A stretch of DNA of 64,000 nucleotides from a bacterium (GCA_021108215.1 JAIORK010000036.1:22948-86947), one strand, 5' to 3'. Numbered from the stretch's first letter, positions 48,195 to 61,192 are shown. The notes: generated by a model from the sequence alone, not told the origin. Numbers and translations: made by a program.

Positions 48195-48740
48195 TTACTT
48201 TTCTATTTGTACTATATATGGTGGGTCAAGTTTTAAGAGTGCATATGTTTTACGAAGAGTTTTTTCTCCTCCAGATCGAATCAGATATTCACCTCGCGTC
48301 GGGATTGTGTCCTTTCTCCAAGATCCATTTTTATAAAGCCATTCCACCTTGATTCCTTTCAGTTCTTGCAAAACAGGATGTATCACCTCAACAACTTTAA
48401 ACGCTGTTGCCCGTTTTTTTTTGCCAAAAGGGTGAGGGATTTCTACTGTTGATGGGATTGATTGCCATTCCTGATCATCAACACTCTTGTATTGAGTTGC
48501 CTTTGCTTGGACACCTCCGGGATCTTTTGCTTCCGGACTATCTGAACAGAAAGCATAGATGGGTTGGGGTTGTGGATTCGCATTAATGTAGTTAATCCAC
48601 TGTCTAATAAATTCTTCTTTTCTATCTTGAAACGACCATAGCGTCCATTCGTTTGCTTCAATTTCCTTTTCTTTACGCCGAAGAATGTCCTCACGGGTTT
48701 CTCCAGCGTGAACTCCTAAACAGTGCCAAAATCCTAGCAT
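48195..48740 (-). CDS. Hypothetical protein (181 aa), third gene of a TA-like operon
   Basis: Start overlaps the upstream toxin gene by 7 nt; AT-rich; no recognisable motifs. Confidence 0.4.
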   Translation of the reverse strand: MLGFWHCLGVHAGETREDILRRKEKEIEANEWTLWSFQDRKEEFIRQWINYINANPQPQPIYAFCSDSPEAKDPGGVQAKATQYKSVDDQEWQSIPSTVEIPHPFGKKKRATAFKVVEVIHPVLQELKGIKVEWLYKNGSWRKDTIPTRGEYLIRSGGEKTLRKTYALLKLDPPYIVQIEK

Positions 48741-49099
48741 ATTTTCCCAATCCTCCCCCGATCCTCTTTCTCCTTATCCCCTTTAAAATAAATTTCTATC
48801 AACGCCACTTTATTTTCCGCCGCATAATACGCATAGATCACCCTGATCCCGGAATTCGCGCCCCTGCCTTTCAGAGCCTTGCAGGCGAATTTGCGGGCTT
48901 TGTAGATTTTCGGATTTTCAATGCCTAAATCAGGAATGGATACGATGCCCTGGTTATCCTTATCCAGCTTATGATAGAGCTGAAGCTGAACTTTGATAAA
49001 TACATCCAAATCATCTTCCGGGGTTTTGAATCGTTTCCTCAGCTTTTTTAAATCCTTCTCAAATTCCGGCCAGCGTCTGACCTCACTGAATATTTTCAT
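48734..49099 (-). CDS. RelE/ParE-superfamily toxin (phage Gp49-like / HigB-like)
   Basis: C-terminal GANSGIRVIYAYYAAENKVALIEIYFKGDKEKEDRG pattern (G.yRviY......i.ll..f.K...k) typical of Gp49/RelE-type toxins; overlaps the upstream antitoxin stop by 17 nt. Confidence 0.55.
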   Translation of the reverse strand: MKIFSEVRRWPEFEKDLKKLRKRFKTPEDDLDVFIKVQLQLYHKLDKDNQGIVSIPDLGIENPKIYKARKFACKALKGRGANSGIRVIYAYYAAENKVALIEIYFKGDKEKEDRGRIGKIC

Positions 49100-49901
49100 C
49101 GCTTCGTCTCACTGAATAGGGTGCTGTCCGGTAAAACACGGATTCATATTCAATATTTTTACCCTCCTCGGAGGTCATCCAGGGAACATCAGCATGTGAA
49201 TAATCTTCCATTTGCCTGGCATTCTTATCCGACAGCCGGGCCAAAACATCGTCAATTACTTCCTTTTCATTCGCTGAAAGAACACTTAAATCCGGTTCCT
49301 TTAGCGGCAAATATTTTGTTTGCGGATAGTCAAAGTATTGGCTTTTCACTTTCTCGATTTCATTATTCTTGATCATGTTATCCACAATCACTTTAAATTC
49401 CCGCGGTGTAGGGCCGTGATGATTCTTAATATACGTGGCCCCGATAAGCTGTTCCTCAAACCTTTCATAATAATCGAAGTCCATAAAATACAGGAGTTTA
49501 TAGATAACGCTTTCCCCGATATTGGGTTTTGATCCCACTTTGCCCAGTATATACAATAAAATCTGCTTGAATTTTTTCAGATTCTTCTGCGGCACGTTTA
49601 TGCGAATACCGGGTTTGGTCTCTTTTTCTTCTTTAGTCATTTCCAAAATCACCTGCGGCTCTTTGGAAATATCCATAAGGCTCTCCACCGAGACCCCGAA
49701 TATTTGGGAAATTTTCTTCAACTCTTTTATTGAGACAGCTCTGGTGCCGTTTTCCATTTGAGAAATCGTGGGACGCACCACTTTCAGTAAGTTCGCCAAT
49801 GCCTGCTGACTCATTTCCTGAGATTCCCTCAACAATTTGACATGTTTGCCTATTTTTTTATCAAATTCGCCCACGGTGAACACCCCCTTTTCTATACTCA
49901 C
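49083..49901 (-). CDS. Antitoxin-like protein: N-terminal XRE HTH fused to Panacea (DUF4065/SocA-like) domain
   Basis: HTH (MSQQALANLLKVVRPTISQMENG) then IYKLLYFMDFDYYERFEEQLIGATYIKNHHGPTP, matching the Panacea-domain core (KLLYF.D......G.p......A...GPv). Confidence 0.55.
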   Translation of the reverse strand: MSIEKGVFTVGEFDKKIGKHVKLLRESQEMSQQALANLLKVVRPTISQMENGTRAVSIKELKKISQIFGVSVESLMDISKEPQVILEMTKEEKETKPGIRINVPQKNLKKFKQILLYILGKVGSKPNIGESVIYKLLYFMDFDYYERFEEQLIGATYIKNHHGPTPREFKVIVDNMIKNNEIEKVKSQYFDYPQTKYLPLKEPDLSVLSANEKEVIDDVLARLSDKNARQMEDYSHADVPWMTSEEGKNIEYESVFYRTAPYSVRRSDENIQ

Positions 49902-54852: not shown

Positions 54853-55176
54853 TTAGTCTACCAACATTTCATTGATCACCGCTTTAATTTGCAGACGGGT
54901 TTTGGCACTTAGCTTTCCAATCTTTTTAACCAATCGGCGTTTGTCAACGGTCCGGATTTGATCAAGAACAACCCATCCTTTTTTATTCTGAAATGTCAGA
55001 CCAACTCTGGTGGGATATTTCTTTGATTGTGTGGTCATTGGCGCAATAATAACAGTTGAAATATACCGATTCATTTCATCAGGAGAAATGACAACACAGG
55101 GTCTGGTTTTCTTGATCTCATGACCCATTGCAGGATCCAGACAAATAAGATAAATATCATATTGAGTGATCACCAC
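54853..55176 (-). CDS. mazF: MazF/PemK family endoribonuclease toxin
   Basis: 107 aa; GDIYLICLDPAMGHEIKKTRPCVVISPDEMN matches the PemK/MazF core (GDI..v.fdP..G.E..K.RPalVvS). Confidence 0.75.
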   Translation of the reverse strand: MVITQYDIYLICLDPAMGHEIKKTRPCVVISPDEMNRYISTVIIAPMTTQSKKYPTRVGLTFQNKKGWVVLDQIRTVDKRRLVKKIGKLSAKTRLQIKAVINEMLVD

Positions 55177-55418
55177 TTCCAGTCACCTTTATCCAGATCA
55201 AGATAATCATCAATAAGCAGGGTATCTTGTTTATTATTGTTCATTGCCAAAAACTTTGCATCCCAGTCTTTCCGAATATCTTTTTTGACTGGTTTTAAAA
55301 CGATACGGTCACTGGTTATTTCGGCATCAACTTGCTCGCCGATATGACATTGCCGCAAAATAGCTTTTGGCAATCGAACACCTCTGGAATTTCCAATTTG
55401 TATAATATCAATCCGCAT
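55170..55418 (-). CDS. mazE: MazE/AbrB-type antitoxin (SpoVT/AbrB swapped-hairpin domain)
   Basis: IQIGNSRGVRLPKAIL motif. Start reassigned to the ATG after GGGAGGTG (the listed ORF has a 41-aa extension); overlaps the mazF start. Confidence 0.65.
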   Translation of the reverse strand: MRIDIIQIGNSRGVRLPKAILRQCHIGEQVDAEITSDRIVLKPVKKDIRKDWDAKFLAMNNNKQDTLLIDDYLDLDKGDWKW

Positions 55419-55548
55419 TGTATTCACCTCCCTTACTTCAAATGTAATTATATTGTAATTACATTTGTTTGTCAAGCATTCATGCCTATCATCGCTATAG
55501 CGCCGGCACGAAGGACGAAAATGCAAGTCGGCTATATGCATATCTGTC

Positions 55549-58500
55549 TCACCGACTGTATTTTTGCAAAATATTGCGAAACTCCATAAATCCTTTGCTT
55601 AATAAATAATTACAAAACTCTTCTGCTCTCTTTTTACTCGCTTGATGATTCTTACTGAAAACACTCTCGAGTATCGCCATAATCTCATCCTGATGAAACG
55701 CAATGAAATTTATTTCATTTTCCGCTAAAGCTACTAATATTTTAACAACTTCAGTTGGATAAGTTTCAACCATTGTTTTAAGTTGTTCCATAATTGGTGG
55801 AATTGCTTCGATATGCTTGGTTTTTTCCAGCACAAATAATAATTGATCAATCGCCCACTGCGAGTCACACTTCCCGGATCCAAACCAATGCCCAAACGCC
55901 GACATTTCATTCAAAAAGATTTCCGGACTCGTTGATAAAAAAAGCATTTTGCATCGCTTTTCCCACATTTTTTTTATGCGCTGCATTTCCATAGCTGATA
56001 AATTTTCCGTGCTCCCTAATATATCAAAACCGATCATTTGCATTGCTGTCCCTCTTAATTCATCCGGCGCTCTTTTCCAAAAATTTATAAAAATATCCGA
56101 TTCTAATTCCAGTTTTCCGCGAATATAAAACAACATCAGATGCCAAGCCAATCGCTTATCTTTTTCTTCCGCAACATCCTCAATTTCGTTGACTGCCCGA
56201 GCATACTCTGTTTTCAATATTTCAAAAACATTATCATAGGGCTGACACAACAAAATATATGCCTTCCAGGCCACAGCCCAATATTCACGTTCCCTCTCAT
56301 CTTCCGGGAATATCCGGGTCCGTGCTTTGGCTGACCATTCCGGTTTTACTTTTGCCAGCCAAGGAAACCAACGCCCGTATACCGAATGAATAGCCAAGCT
56401 GGAATCTTGCGTATGATCAAGATGTTTATCCAAAATCTTTTCAATTTCAGGCATCATTTCTTCTCTTTTATCCTCTTCAAAATCATCTGTTTGACTCTGG
56501 ATTTTATTTCTGTAAATCCACCACATATAATTCATAACTGCATGCATGGCTTTTCCGCGGGTAGAATTGATTGAACGGGAATATGGTTCCATGTCATGTG
56601 TGTTTTCATATTCACTTGTCGGATCCGAATCTTCGGTTAATGGCTCTAAAACAGTCCAAACGCTTTTCCGTAGCTTTAAGGGGATTAAATTTTTACGCAT
56701 ACCTTCAACCAGGCAGTCTGCTATCTCCCCCCTGGCTTGGCCCCTATCGTCCGCATTTTCCTCTTTTATTTCGCGTGACTGTCGCATCCACTGACCAAGT
56801 TCCAGCATAGACGCCCACTCCAGCTTTGTATTGGTATTACGGATCACTTCTTTAAATCCAAATAATATCCAAAATAAATAATTTGAAGTATATGGACTGG
56901 TAAGCCGGGTAAATTGCCGTGCCTCGACAGAATACAATTCAGGCCTGGCTTGCACCAAAGACGACAGCATTTGCGCCAATCCTTCCGCAGAAACGTCTCT
57001 GACTTCTGCTGATGGTTTCCAAGCGTTTAAAAATTCAACCAGCTTCTCAATTGGCAAGGCGGCTAACTCGTCCAGGGTTTTTGGGCTGGATTCCCATCCC
57101 CCCTCCACTACAACTCCGGTGTTTCTCTTTTTCTCCGCTACACCATATTCTTGAACTAATTTCGTATAATAAGGCTGCCATGCCGCTGGCAAAGCTTGGC
57201 CAAACCTGGCCAGACAATCCCTTTGCCAGTGCCGGCGAACTTGCTCAGCCTCATCTTTCCCGGGTTTTCTGTACCTCTTGTCAAAATCCGGCCCGTCTTC
57301 AACCCATTTTAAGATCATCGCCTGTTTATCCTGCGGTAAAAATCCAAAACCCTTTTCCAGCAGCGGTCCATATTCATCCCAGCATTCACCACTTGCAAAT
57401 AACGCCTTGTCTGATAAATATTTATCTGTCAGTTCCGGCGCTGACCCGGGACAAAGGCTTAATAAATGAAGCGCTATCCGCTTGAAAAGCATCCATGGTT
57501 TCTCGCTTGAAATTTTTACCAAAACATCAATACCTATAGTCGCATCCAATTGCGTGCCTGTCTTTAATATCAAATCGATTAGAATATTTCTAAGCTCGTA
57601 CATCTCATATTGCATTGGTTTTTCAATCTCCGGGCGCCAAAAAAAAGAATAATCATTATTATTTTCCGGTTCCTCATCCTTGGCTTGTGAATATCTCAAT
57701 GCCATATCCAACATCTCGCATAGCCATCGGAACACAGGAACACCGGTTGACTTTGCAAGTTCCGGAATAATCTTCTCCGTTATCTCTTTATACCGGGAAA
57801 TTTCTACTCTTGTTTTCGGATGCGGGCCATCCCAATAGCGCTCTGCGTTTTCTTTGCTCTTCTGCCAGCGAGGATCCGGGAGTATTACCAGCATTTTTTT
57901 CGCCAGCCCGAAAGCTTCCTCCGCTTTTCCTGCCAAAGTATAATACAGGACCAGTTCAGCCAAATGCTTGTCAAGCGGATAAAACAAATATTCATTTACC
58001 ATCCACTTGGCTGCTTTATCTATTAAACTCATAGCTATATCAATCGGCAGATTCAGCGTTGCTTTAACCAAACCATCAATAACATAGACATTTTGTGTGT
58101 CAGGGATGATTAAAATAATATCCGCAACTGCTTGGGGCGCTATTTTGGCCATCCGCACTAAATAACCGGATTCCGCCCAAAATGGAAACGTTATGGAACC
58201 ATCTTCATTTTGTAGCAGCTCCGGGGGACTTCGAAAAACTGATGTATCTTTTAGCCGTGCAAGCCATTTTGGATTAGAGCATCTTTCAAAAAAGTATTTG
58301 CGTATAAAATAGACATCAGGAATTTCTTTGTAGAGTTTTTCCGCATCCTTAGAAGTCGGATTATCTTTTTCCAGTAATTTATCCAGTTCGGCAATCAATC
58401 CCGAGCTATGATTGCGCAACGCATGTAAAATCCGCTTCAAATAAACATCCATGTCCGACAAGTTTTTTTCCAGATCACTTGGAGTCATTCGCGGAGCATC

Positions 58501-59391
58501 CAATCTATCTCGGTGCGCTATTTTTTGCAGGGTTCCAGGCTTTACAAACCACTGCAATTCATCTTCTTCTCTCTCTCCTGTTAATTCTTTTAACAACCTC
58601 TCTATTTCTTTTTTATGCGCATCATGTTCACCTTGTTTTTTTTCTATATCCAGATAAAGTCTCAACACATCCCTGATACTGCTTTCAATTTCTCTAAGCA
58701 AATGCCCCAGCAAATGCGAGCGAGTCTTTAATTCCCCTCCATTTCGTCTTATCCAGCAAATATCCCAATAAAACGCTTCTGCTCCAGGCCCGGCCAGTTC
58801 TTTTAAGTCCTCATAGACTTGTCTTTGGATGCCATCTAATTGAAAATTTTGCTGCGGTCCTAGGGGCATCTCTGCTGCTTTTTTGTCCACCTGCTCAGGC
58901 AATTTTCCCAGCTCTAATATCTTTTCCAATTTCGCAAGCGTCGCAATTGTGATATTTTTTTTCCCTTTTTCAAGAGCGGAAATATCCGGCTGCTTTAAAC
59001 CTGTGCGGCGGGCCAAATCTGCTTGTGTCCAACCCTTCTGTTCTCTGGCCTGTTTTATTTTTCTTCCAATTACCTGATTCTCTTCAGCCGGCGCACCTTT
59101 AATCCGCTTGTTTTTACCTTTTTTTTGTTCAAGCAGTTCATAAACACGCTCCCACTTGGCATAATAATCCGGCGCCTCACTGGTGCGCTTCCATTCCCGC
59201 CGGATTTTCGGCCACACTTCAGTAAATTGCTCTTTTGTGATGAAGGTAAAAATGTCTTTGGGGCGATCATTGCGTGTTAAAACACGGATAATTTTTTTCG
59301 GAAAATCAGGATGTTCAGGAATCTTAAGGATTCGCTCCGTTTCCTTCAAGGCATCTTCCGGCAAATCCCAAAAATAATCTCCGATCTTCAT
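55549..59391 (-). CDS. Giant (1280-aa) helical protein with embedded XRE-family HTH, translationally coupled to an AbiEii-like nucleotidyltransferase
   Basis: HTH at ~aa 105-165 (IGRKIKQAREQKGWTQADLARRTGLKQPDISALEKGKKNITIATLAKL). Remainder is alpha-helical/repeat-like with no Walker or nuclease motifs seen. Stop overlaps the downstream start (ATGA). Confidence 0.5.
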   Translation of the reverse strand: MKIGDYFWDLPEDALKETERILKIPEHPDFPKKIIRVLTRNDRPKDIFTFITKEQFTEVWPKIRREWKRTSEAPDYYAKWERVYELLEQKKGKNKRIKGAPAEENQVIGRKIKQAREQKGWTQADLARRTGLKQPDISALEKGKKNITIATLAKLEKILELGKLPEQVDKKAAEMPLGPQQNFQLDGIQRQVYEDLKELAGPGAEAFYWDICWIRRNGGELKTRSHLLGHLLREIESSIRDVLRLYLDIEKKQGEHDAHKKEIERLLKELTGEREEDELQWFVKPGTLQKIAHRDRLDAPRMTPSDLEKNLSDMDVYLKRILHALRNHSSGLIAELDKLLEKDNPTSKDAEKLYKEIPDVYFIRKYFFERCSNPKWLARLKDTSVFRSPPELLQNEDGSITFPFWAESGYLVRMAKIAPQAVADIILIIPDTQNVYVIDGLVKATLNLPIDIAMSLIDKAAKWMVNEYLFYPLDKHLAELVLYYTLAGKAEEAFGLAKKMLVILPDPRWQKSKENAERYWDGPHPKTRVEISRYKEITEKIIPELAKSTGVPVFRWLCEMLDMALRYSQAKDEEPENNNDYSFFWRPEIEKPMQYEMYELRNILIDLILKTGTQLDATIGIDVLVKISSEKPWMLFKRIALHLLSLCPGSAPELTDKYLSDKALFASGECWDEYGPLLEKGFGFLPQDKQAMILKWVEDGPDFDKRYRKPGKDEAEQVRRHWQRDCLARFGQALPAAWQPYYTKLVQEYGVAEKKRNTGVVVEGGWESSPKTLDELAALPIEKLVEFLNAWKPSAEVRDVSAEGLAQMLSSLVQARPELYSVEARQFTRLTSPYTSNYLFWILFGFKEVIRNTNTKLEWASMLELGQWMRQSREIKEENADDRGQARGEIADCLVEGMRKNLIPLKLRKSVWTVLEPLTEDSDPTSEYENTHDMEPYSRSINSTRGKAMHAVMNYMWWIYRNKIQSQTDDFEEDKREEMMPEIEKILDKHLDHTQDSSLAIHSVYGRWFPWLAKVKPEWSAKARTRIFPEDEREREYWAVAWKAYILLCQPYDNVFEILKTEYARAVNEIEDVAEEKDKRLAWHLMLFYIRGKLELESDIFINFWKRAPDELRGTAMQMIGFDILGSTENLSAMEMQRIKKMWEKRCKMLFLSTSPEIFLNEMSAFGHWFGSGKCDSQWAIDQLLFVLEKTKHIEAIPPIMEQLKTMVETYPTEVVKILVALAENEINFIAFHQDEIMAILESVFSKNHQASKKRAEEFCNYLLSKGFMEFRNILQKYSR

Positions 59392-60110
59392 GAGAGTTCA
59401 CCCTCCAAAAACGCGCTCAATTCATCATCTAAATGACGGATAATCATTTTTGATTTGAGTTTGCGGTCATAAATGGCATCAGCATAATCCAAATAATCTT
59501 GCTCAAACTTTTGGGTTGAAAATCTCTTGCGCCACCCTATCATCGTTCGCTGATAGGTGCGTGGAATCGTTTTTAAAAATGAATGTAATGGCTCGATCTT
59601 TTTGGACAAATAATAGAGATCAATAACATCACGCGGGACATTTCGACCAACAGCTTGCGGTTCTCCATGTCCATTCTTCTCAGGTACAATTCCGGTAATC
59701 GCGATTATTTTTTGAAAATAAATCCGATTGACATCATACACCGGTATACCCTTAATTTTCTTAATAAAATTTTCCCTGGTTAGCTGCGGAAGGACATCTT
59801 CTACGAAATCAAGTTTCAATGATTCGGAAGTTTTCTCTATAGGGATGGTATAAAAATGAACATTCATTTTCCCGGGATGAGTAATTTCATCCTTGAATTC
59901 CGGTTTGTATCCACCTTTTTTTATTTCTTCAAGAATCGAAACAATTTCCCCATAATTAAACTCAAGTGAAAAGAAATCCAGATCGCGTGAAAAACGATGT
60001 TGAAGATAAAAAATCTCCAATGCCGTCCCGCCGGCCAAAGCAAAATTCCCGGGATTTTTGGAAAATAAGTTCAAAATTTCCAGATGTAATTTTCGCAGTC
60101 TTTTATTCAC
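59388..60110 (-). CDS. Nucleotidyltransferase, AbiEii/AbiGii toxin family (DUF1814-like)
   Basis: NTase-fold motifs FALAGGTALEIFYLQHRFSRDLDFFS (hG[GS] ... [DE]xD pattern typical of AbiEii); 240 aa. Confidence 0.65.
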   Translation of the reverse strand: MNKRLRKLHLEILNLFSKNPGNFALAGGTALEIFYLQHRFSRDLDFFSLEFNYGEIVSILEEIKKGGYKPEFKDEITHPGKMNVHFYTIPIEKTSESLKLDFVEDVLPQLTRENFIKKIKGIPVYDVNRIYFQKIIAITGIVPEKNGHGEPQAVGRNVPRDVIDLYYLSKKIEPLHSFLKTIPRTYQRTMIGWRKRFSTQKFEQDYLDYADAIYDRKLKSKMIIRHLDDELSAFLEGELS

Positions 60111-60175
60111 ATCAACACCGCCAACAAAATATAGCTTATATGCTATATTGATTATAGTTTAAAAGCTATATTTTG

Positions 60176-61192
60176 TCAACTATCCATTGAAGCAAGATTG
60201 GCATAAGCCGGCAAATCCCAAGCAGAGCGCCGACCCGCTGCCAAATAGCGCGCGCCTACGGATGCTATCATGGCGGCGTTGTCTGTACACCACTCCACCG
60301 GCGGGCTAAAAAACGGGATACCCTCTTGATGTGCGGCCGCAGAAAACGCCTCCCGCAAAGACCGGTTGGCGGCAACCCCGCCGGTCAGTACCAAAGCATG
60401 TACCTCATGCTTTTGAATAACCGCCAGGGTTTTGCGTACCAAATCCTCAATAACCGTCTTTTGAAACCCGGCGGCAATCTCTGCCGCCACCAATTCTTTT
60501 CCTGCTTTACGACTGCTCTCGAGCAAATAACGAACCGCAGTTTTTATCCCGGAATAGGAAAAATCCGCAGACCCGTCTTTCATACGCGGAAGGGTGAACC
60601 GAATACCGGATTGCGGGTGATTCTTGGCTGCCGCCTCAATGGCCGGACCACCGGGATATGGCATCCCCAACAATTTGGCAACTTTATCAAATGCCTCCCC
60701 CACCGCATCATCCCGGGTACTGGCCAGCAATTCATACTCCGGAAGATCGCCCGCTGTCACCAGATAAAGATTAGTATGTCCGCCGGATGCAACCAGCCCG
60801 ACAAAGGGATAGGGTAAAGCGGGATGATTCAATTCCGAAGCAAACAGATGGCCTTCCAGATGGTTAATGCCAATAAAAGGCAGTTGACGTGCAAAAGCAG
60901 CTGCCTTGGCCCATGTCAACCCAACCAATAAAGCACCCATAAGACCGGGACCGCAGGTGGCGGCAATGCCGTCAATATCATCCCAGGATAACCCGGCCTG
61001 AGAAAATGTCTCATCAATGACCCGGGGTAGATCGCGCAGATGCTGCCGCGAGGCAAGCTCCGGAACCACCCCGCCATAAGGCGCATGCACCTTGAGCTGC
61101 GATGCCACAACAGAGGCAAGCACTTCCCGCTGCTCTGTGACCACGGCTGCTGATGTTTCATCACAAGATGATTCAATGCCGAGTATTTTCAT
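60176..61192 (-). CDS. tsaD: tRNA N6-adenosine threonylcarbamoyltransferase
   Basis: MKILGIESSCDETSAAVV, HxxGH metal site (NHLEGHLF), Kae1/YgjD fold; 338 aa. Confidence 0.93.
   Translation of the reverse strand: MKILGIESSCDETSAAVVTEQREVLASVVASQLKVHAPYGGVVPELASRQHLRDLPRVIDETFSQAGLSWDDIDGIAATCGPGLMGALLVGLTWAKAAAFARQLPFIGINHLEGHLFASELNHPALPYPFVGLVASGGHTNLYLVTAGDLPEYELLASTRDDAVGEAFDKVAKLLGMPYPGGPAIEAAAKNHPQSGIRFTLPRMKDGSADFSYSGIKTAVRYLLESSRKAGKELVAAEIAAGFQKTVIEDLVRKTLAVIQKHEVHALVLTGGVAANRSLREAFSAAAHQEGIPFFSPPVEWCTDNAAMIASVGARYLAAGRRSAWDLPAYANLASMDS

Follow-up and report, generated by a model that had tools for sequence, protein, structure and literature searches.

An AbiEii-family nucleotidyltransferase operon in which the usual small XRE-type partner is fused to a HEPN-like module and an Avs7/Dsr1-type sensor region

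The stretch of bacterial DNA analysed here (GCA_021108215.1, JAIORK010000036.1:22948-86947; hereafter the window, 64,000 nt, with positions counted from its first letter) carries a two-gene operon that pairs a nucleotidyltransferase (NTase) of the AbiEii/DUF1814 family with an unusually large protein, here called the giant. Judged by homology, the giant is a complete small NTase partner fused to a complete, pre-existing protein composed of a HEPN-like module and a sensor, and not a new giant antitoxin: its first ~165 residues align as the small partner with which NTases of this subfamily are ordinarily found, and its C-terminal part is, on the same grounds, a genuine domain of the phage-sensor type that runs co-linear with the sensor of DSR1. 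Because the first ~165 residues equal the common small partner, the novelty of the locus lies in the fusion of two pre-existing complete proteins. We read the locus as a two-gene, toxin-first, toxin-antitoxin-like operon in which the sensor gates the release of the NTase, a proposal to which we give an even chance.

Both open reading frames (ORFs) reported in the initial annotation are present on the minus strand and share the four-base overlap ATGA (Table 1), and the giant's ATG is preceded, at a distance of 9 nt, by the ribosome-binding site GGAGGG. Transcription runs from 60110 to 55549, and therefore the NTase, which had been taken for the downstream gene, is the upstream gene and the giant the downstream one. 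The exact operon, with no difference over 4562 nt, was found in four contigs compared (L013-L016), and an identical NTase is encoded on ten contigs from several samples; these identical copies on multiple contigs and in multiple samples argue that the operon is not an assembly artefact.

Table 1. Features of the NTase operon and its surroundings in the window, and the fusion genes of the six lineages (lengths in residues, aa).
Feature	Position	Strand	Basis or remark
AbiEii/DUF1814 NTase, 240 aa, GTG start, presumed toxin	59388-60110	-	ORF call, Pfam and PADLOC
Giant, 1280 aa, ATG start	55549-59391	-	ORF call
Giant aa 1-100, partner N-domain	59092-59391	-	Homology to small partners
Giant aa 108-162, XRE/Cro-type helix-turn-helix (HTH)	58906-59070	-	Pfam HTH_3, E=2e-13
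Giant aa ~196-345, HEPN-like helical module, candidate second effector (RNase-like)	58357-58806	-	Predicted fold, conserved residues
Giant aa 346-1280, HEAT/ARM-type alpha-solenoid, homologue of the DSR1 C-terminal sensor	55552-58356	-	PADLOC Dsr1
NTase motifs	A26-G27-G28; R39-x3-D43-x-D45; K99-x-D101; K134; R160-D161-x-x-D164		S41 at phospho-acceptor position
Sigma-70 promoter, TTGACA-17 nt-TATAAT, 12/12 matches	60151-60179	-	Promoter scan; within the 65-nt gap that follows the stop codon of tsaD
Candidate operator O1, ATATAGCTTTTAAACTATAA (ATATAG-N8-CTATAA)	60152-60171	-	Overlaps promoter spacer and -10 hexamer
Candidate operator O2, perfect palindrome ATATAGCATATAAGCTATAT	60129-60148	-	Between -10 hexamer and GTG start
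Fusion, window	1280 aa		Between tsaD and dusB
Fusion, L001/L020	1249 aa		Ca. Goldiibacteriota; between prfC and a DUF386 gene
Fusion, L026	1299 aa		Uncultured bacterium
Fusion, L023	>=725 aa		Ca. Firestonebacteria; ends at contig end
Fusion, L017	1307 aa		Contig begins 21 codons before the fusion gene
Fusion, L101	1280 aa		Between acpS and the NAD(P)HX dehydratase gene
mazEF pair	54853-55475	-	Directly 3' of the giant
Promoter of mazEF, perfect TTGACA-17-TATAAT	55475-55447		
mazF	54853-55176		Overlapped by mazE
Second islet of low guanine-plus-cytosine (GC) content, ~0.41	48195-49901	-	
HTH_3 + SocA_Panacea (PanA-type antitoxin) gene	49083-49901		In the second low-GC islet
ORF, 121 aa	48734-49099		No Pfam family
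ORF, 181 aa	48195-48740		No Pfam family; overlaps the preceding ORF
FtsH-like protein, 575 aa	45882-47609	-	AAA + Peptidase_M41; adjoins the PanA islet

The family of the NTase is AbiEii (Pfam PF08843; E=1.9e-19; score 71 bits, cut-off 22.5), nineteen PADLOC AbiEii models match it, and the signature AGGTAL...RFSRDLDFF, by which it had initially been recognised, is present in the protein; no match to the MNT families (PF01909, PF18765) was obtained in the Pfam scan. The motif residues listed in Table 1 are invariant or nearly so among 22 homologues, and A26G27G28, R39x3D43xD45, K134 and R160D161xxD164 are invariant, in agreement with the catalytic motifs I-IV defined for AbiEii (hG[GS], R-x3-DhD, K plus R, and +DxxD; Dy et al. 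2014, PMC3985639). Of these motifs, I, II and IV are intact, as is the lysine of III; the arginine of motif III is not at the +7 spacing, and the conserved R156 and R160 come after an insertion. A loss of the catalytic residues, which had been considered as something that would speak against the proposed system, is thus not seen: the motifs are intact in the NTases of the window, L020, L023, L026 and L021. S41 (R39-F-S41-R-D43), two residues before the first catalytic aspartate, is invariant in the 22 aligned members of the subfamily and has the position of the phospho-acceptors T65 of AbiEii and S78 of MenT3 (PMC11375011; bioRxiv 2026.01.19.700257), phosphorylation itself being a prediction.

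The partners of this NTase were surveyed in the contexts of single NTase homologues and then by scanning 80 species-level genome loci with the NTase alignment; a word-index search with giant residues 1-168 was too insensitive and yielded only five partners. In 77 of the 80 loci the next gene after the NTase, in the same orientation, encodes a homologue of giant residues 1-165, comprising the N-domain and the XRE-type HTH, and the NTase lies upstream in every one of them. The two genes overlap by four bases in 66 of these 77 loci, and in 71 the partner has a length of 163-177 residues. Two of the three remaining loci end at contig ends, and in L098 no partner was detected though the contig runs on downstream. 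Residues 1-165 of the giant are 44-46% identical to the stand-alone partners of ~167 residues. The N-domain shows a pattern conserved across 20 partners (YFWD...HP...LSRCD.PKE.F...WPKIR..W...WW..IYE), and profile searches revealed neither a credible Pfam family nor a relative in the PDB for it, the matches to DASH_Ask1 being spurious. For the HTH of the giant, the top matches in a PDB sequence search are HipB antitoxins. We presume that the N-domain binds and neutralises the NTase and that the HTH serves as the DNA-binding domain of an operon autorepressor. The NTase subfamily consists of proteins of ~236 residues (237 matches in a word-index search) and was confirmed in at least 232 species-level genomes, mostly of Omnitrophota, Elusimicrobiota, Nitrospirota, Planctomycetota and WOR-1; to judge from these sequences, it forms a toxin-first module whose partner domain is new and whose operator is conserved, and of this module we found no earlier description.

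The PADLOC Dsr1 model PDLC04166 aligns co-linearly with most of the giant (residues 335-1279 against profile positions 296-1225 of 1227, E=5.1e-46), so that the match comprises all of DSR1 save its SIR2 part, and every relative tested matches this model as well. Beyond the HTH, the AlphaFold2 model is an all-alpha, HEAT/ARM-like repeat structure (mean predicted local distance difference test score 81.7; predicted TM-score 0.52). The helical repeat architecture of more than 1000 residues described initially is thereby confirmed, but its function need no longer be called unknown, as a HEPN-like module and a DSR1/Avs7-type sensor can be assigned to it. Likewise, the view that the giant holds only an internal HTH has been superseded by four homologous units, namely the partner N-domain, the HTH, the HEPN-like module and the sensor, and a sensor-bearing, non-canonical partner is thus supported by homology. 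PDB sequence and profile searches with the giant and with a profile of residues 190-1280 returned nothing beyond HTH proteins and no solved Avs7 or Dsr1 chain.

A word-index search with the whole giant was saturated by candidates sharing the HTH and gave 16 relatives only; an exhaustive profile search with residues 190-1280 gave 9,636 cluster representatives, 4,930 of them at E<=1e-30. Most of the top profile matches are stand-alone proteins of either ~1120-1150 or ~950-985 residues. Residues ~190-1280 of the giant align end to end with the stand-alone proteins of ~1120 residues, the fusion junction falls where the latter have their N-terminus, and a linker of ~25 residues separates the partner part from the HEPN-like-sensor part. 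Avs7 and Dsr1 have been reported to share their sensor domain, with SeAvs7 and EcDsr1 triggered by the phage major capsid protein, and in ~9,100 proteins this sensor is joined to various effectors at the N-terminus, among them a 'HEPN-like RNase' of Streptomyces (PMC12803255, a 2026 preprint); partners of the HTH, antitoxin or NTase kind go unmentioned in the main text of that preprint. The stand-alone proteins P0003-P0014 are probably its HEPN-like branch. One of them, P0003 (1119 residues; L002:6001-9360, GCA_006214125.1), is encoded directly after hsdR-hsdM-hsdS, and P0005 lies beside another type I restriction-modification system in an SSB/DUF932 element; P0250 adjoins an integrase, and P0178 precedes a serine recombinase. 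The gene of P0003 starts at the base right after the end of hsdS and is embedded in the type I restriction-modification operon like PrrC-like genes.

The module between the linker and the solenoid adopts a HEPN-like four-helix fold in two independent models, and its nearest structural neighbours are the HepT-type HEPN toxins 5yep_B, 8xdj_A and 7ae2_A. As no Pfam match was obtained for it even at E<=10, the HEPN-like assignment is made solely from the fold. Six residues (H230, R233, E234, W281, H293 and R294) are 100% conserved in 102 module-bearing representatives and in the giant, and H226, R301, D210 and C212, conserved to ~90% or more in these representatives, are all present in the giant. 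We hypothesize that the module may act as a ribonuclease (RNase). In L100, a sensor-only protein of 967 residues (P0008, L100:1696-4599) is preceded by an overlapping ORF of 221 residues (L100:1059-1724; FVAHAVREICNRL..., ...LSELDEILEEAN) that resembles the HEPN-like module. This arrangement may represent a split gene or a frameshift in an assembly of 4x coverage, and some of the forms of ~950-985 residues may be truncated gene calls.

Full fusions of N-domain, HTH, HEPN-like module and sensor were found in six lineages, with 31-64% identity to the giant (Table 1). Wherever upstream sequence exists, an AbiEii NTase gene lies directly 5' with a four-base overlap, and the 21 upstream codons available in L017 resemble an NTase C-terminus. 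The pair is therefore syntenic in five further diverged lineages, and the earlier concern that it might never recur elsewhere does not hold. In a neighbour-joining tree, from which the NTases of L017 and L101 are absent, the NTases of the window, L020, L023 and L026 fusions form one clade that also contains the NTase of L021, and this one clade suggests that the fusion arose once, long ago, and has been kept by selection. We also considered a precursor state in which the sensor gene stands by itself beside the small-partner module and rejected it, no such gene being found near the module in 134 loci.

A different extension was observed in candidate division FCPU426 (L005/L021), where a 435-residue partner (L005:4711-6018) consists of the N-domain, the HTH and an unrelated C-terminal extension of ~270 residues without a Pfam family, in an operon with lexA on one side and a dinB-type (IMS) polymerase gene on the other. 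The N-domain/HTH antitoxin may repeatedly have gained domains at its C-terminus.

The operon is preceded by a sigma-70 promoter and by two candidate operators that are 23 bp apart (Table 1). The pattern ATATAG-N8-CTATA(T/A) gives three strand-hits at two sites in the 64 kb of the window, both at the NTase promoter, with 0.08 expected, and none of 100 shuffles reached three hits. This TTGACA-based layout also precedes the homologous NTase genes in L001, L005, L008, L011, L023 and L026; the same pair of palindromes, 22-23 bp apart, precedes the NTase in L001, L005-L007 and L011, and near-identical palindromes are present in the fusion loci L023 and L026. The operator layout is thus common to small-partner loci and to the fusion loci L001, L023 and L026. 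In L101, which diverges most among the fusion loci, the promoter palindrome is a different one of 16 bp, ACTAGCTATAGCTAGT (L101:1700-1760). To judge from its position and conservation, the layout is the probable signature of an autoregulated operon of the toxin-antitoxin type, to which the HTH of the downstream protein would bind as the repressor. L101 also encodes a second, divergently oriented protein of 170 residues (L101:509-1021, minus strand) with an HTH at residues 114-165 as in the small partners, and no NTase gene is visible beside it.

Toxicity, neutralisation, DNA binding, the trigger and the coupling of sensor and NTase are inferred here from the biochemistry of AbiE and MenAT and from the precedents of Avs7/Dsr1 and CapRel. 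In the uninfected cell, the HTH of the giant would occupy the two palindromic operators over the -10/+1 region and repress the operon, and the N-domain would keep the NTase inactive, either by sequestration or, in the manner of AbiEi and MenA, by inducing it to phosphorylate itself at S41. In the infected cell, the solenoid would bind a structural protein of the phage that is present in abundance, the major capsid protein if the analogy holds, and the resulting conformational change or oligomerisation would free the NTase to modify tRNA 3' ends and bring translation to a stop. The same binding event would probably switch on the HEPN-like module in cis, with abortive infection as the outcome. 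That one sensor binding event fires two unrelated effectors, the NTase in trans and the HEPN-like nuclease in cis, is a more tentative proposal, which we think somewhat likelier to fail than to hold.

Several known systems share parts of this architecture. With DSR1, the giant has in common a homologous and co-linear C-terminal solenoid of ~950 residues. It differs from DSR1 by the missing SIR2 NADase (no Pfam or PADLOC match, profile positions 1-295 unmatched), in place of which it has the HEPN-like module, by the toxin-antitoxin partner domains 5' of this module and by an NTase in trans; membership of DSR1 was rejected on the missing SIR2 domain. The proteins with an Avs7/Dsr1 sensor (PMC12803255), the repeat solenoid of which is bilobed and sharply bent, resemble the giant in the sensor class and in the layout of N-terminal effector and C-terminal sensor, but the giant is without a STAND NTPase. 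In CapRel(SJ46), the antitoxin part senses the capsid protein (bioRxiv 10.1101/2024.05.10.593582). The likeness is one of concept, in that the antitoxin part would be the phage sensor, the capsid the molecule sensed and tRNA 3' ends the target of the toxin; the proteins are unrelated, and whereas toxin and antitoxin of CapRel form one chain in which the small antitoxin domain itself senses, the toxin in the window is a separate protein and a dedicated sensor of ~950 residues has been added to the antitoxin. RlegTA, SanaTA and SdenTA likewise encode a DUF1814 toxin upstream of the antitoxin, and SanaTA and RlegTA are cited in bioRxiv 2026.01.19.700257 as affecting phage T7; their antitoxins, however, are AbiEi-like, have 136-205 residues and carry no sensor fusion.

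Some observations weigh against a sensor that gates NTase release. The fusion is rare, being found in three of the 80 genomes with the NTase subfamily, and the capsid trigger is known for Avs7 and the Dsr1 of E. coli, of which the giant is a very distant branch. Since the N-domain has no known relative, its antitoxin role is argued solely from gene-neighbourhood logic. The canonical Rx4-6H motif is not conserved in the HEPN-like module, the polar set of which is H226/H230-x2-R233-E234 and H293-R294...R301. The AbiE system of S. agalactiae gave no protection against 32 coliphages (bioRxiv 2026.01.19.700257), and defence activity of DUF1814 systems can therefore not be assumed. Furthermore, P0178, P0233 and P0278 (HTH_3) and P0250 (HVO_A0114 winged HTH) bear only an N-terminal DNA-binding domain and have no NTase gene nearby (loci L018 and L019); their neighbours are integrase or recombinase genes. 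Comparison of these proteins indicates that DNA-binding fusions to the sensor family are recurrent and independent, and such sensor proteins without an NTase mean that the fusion in the window could serve autoregulation only.

This last point leads to the main rival explanation, according to which a self-contained HEPN-like-sensor defence protein sits behind the antitoxin for the sake of co-regulation or addiction only: the HTH would provide tight autorepression and the NTase would penalise loss of the gene, with no allosteric link between sensor and NTase. The recurrence of N-terminal DNA-binding fusions by themselves fits this explanation, as do the conserved operators and the fact that the stand-alone proteins of ~1120 residues already hold a conserved candidate effector. 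However, a plain HTH would be enough for regulation, and yet the examined fusion lineages have kept both the catalytic residues of the NTase and a complete N-domain despite identities of 31-64%, and the four-base coupling with the NTase is always kept in the fusion. We regard co-regulation or addiction as possible but, on this balance, rather unlikely.

A further possibility follows the logic of the HEPN-MNT (HepT/MntA) type VII systems, with the NTase acting not as the toxin but as a regulator that nucleotidylylates, or in some other way restrains, the giant's HEPN-like RNase module, much as MntA AMPylates HepT. Both arrangements place an NTase gene next to, and in the window before, a gene encoding a HEPN fold, and the nearest structural neighbours of the module are the HepT-type toxins of HEPN-MNT pairs. 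The NTase of the window, however, belongs to DUF1814/AbiEii and not to MNT, the module has neither a canonical Rx4-6H motif nor a conserved acceptor tyrosine, and in ~95% of the loci the partner of this NTase lacks a HEPN module altogether. We consider this logic very unlikely because the ancestral partner of the NTase is without a HEPN domain.

It is also conceivable that the operon has no role in defence and that the giant is a housekeeping transcription factor that has a solenoid binding a cellular protein and that controls an RNA- or protein-modifying NTase. Several fusion loci do lie between housekeeping genes (tsaD and dusB, prfC and DUF386, acpS and the NAD(P)HX dehydratase gene). Each lineage, though, has the insertion at a different site, the islet in the window has a lower GC content and mazEF as a neighbour, stand-alone relatives are found in type I restriction-modification operons and beside integrases or recombinases, and the sensor is homologous to that of a validated defence protein; a housekeeping role thus appears highly improbable.

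With AbiE and MenAT (type IV, reclassified as type VII), the operon shares the DUF1814 NTase family, motifs I, II and IV and the Ser/Thr acceptor position, the bicistronic and translationally coupled organisation, promoter inverted repeats that are consistent with antitoxin autoregulation, and probably tRNA 3' ends as the target class. In contrast to AbiE, in which the antitoxin gene comes first, the window and all 77 partner-bearing loci have the NTase gene first, and the window partner has, instead of AbiEi (COG5340, with an N-terminal winged HTH plus an antitoxin domain at the C-terminus), the new N-domain, an XRE HTH and ~1100 extra residues. The proposal of a non-canonical, AbiE-like system made in the initial annotation is borne out in these respects. 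An ordinary AbiE system with the giant as an enlarged, database-common AbiEi antitoxin, for which the AbiEii-family NTase and the bicistronic operon of overlapping genes might be quoted, is effectively refuted, and was rejected as either canonical AbiE or a fused AbiEi, by the absence of an AbiEi match in Pfam, NCBIfam and PADLOC, the XRE domain in place of the AbiEi winged HTH, the reversed gene order and the rarity of the fusion with six lineages found.

The surroundings of the operon agree with the initial description in that mazE and mazF adjoin the giant and that dusB and tsaD flank the islet. The islet does have a lower GC content, but its AT-richness is only modest: GC is 0.37-0.44 across most of 55000-60000, with the exception of the bin 57000-57499 (0.478), and ~0.47-0.55 in the flanks. 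Since mazEF has its own promoter and is absent from the other fusion loci, we take it as an independent neighbour and rejected it as a part of the NTase/giant system. The 123-residue mazE ORF obtained by mechanical calling is over-extended; the probable real start is the ATG at 55418 after GGAGG, which gives 82 residues, as in public gene calls. Elsewhere in the window, the PanA-type antitoxin gene in the second low-GC islet (Table 1) is followed by two overlapping ORFs. This islet could be a PanA-associated toxin-antitoxin module, with one or more candidate toxins.

If the proposed gating of the NTase by the sensor is true, the operon would offer a natural and testable answer to the question of how toxins of the AbiE class are triggered by phage, with the concrete hypothesis that binding of a capsid protein to the solenoid sets the NTase free. 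It would also mean that Avs7/Dsr1 sensors can drive separately encoded effectors by way of an antitoxin adaptor domain, and the picture of effector swapping on this sensor would be extended to a toxin-antitoxin module with its effector in trans. All components are of known kinds, and the value of the locus would lie in the natural experiment by which the toxin of a toxin-antitoxin system has been tied to a recognisable phage sensor.

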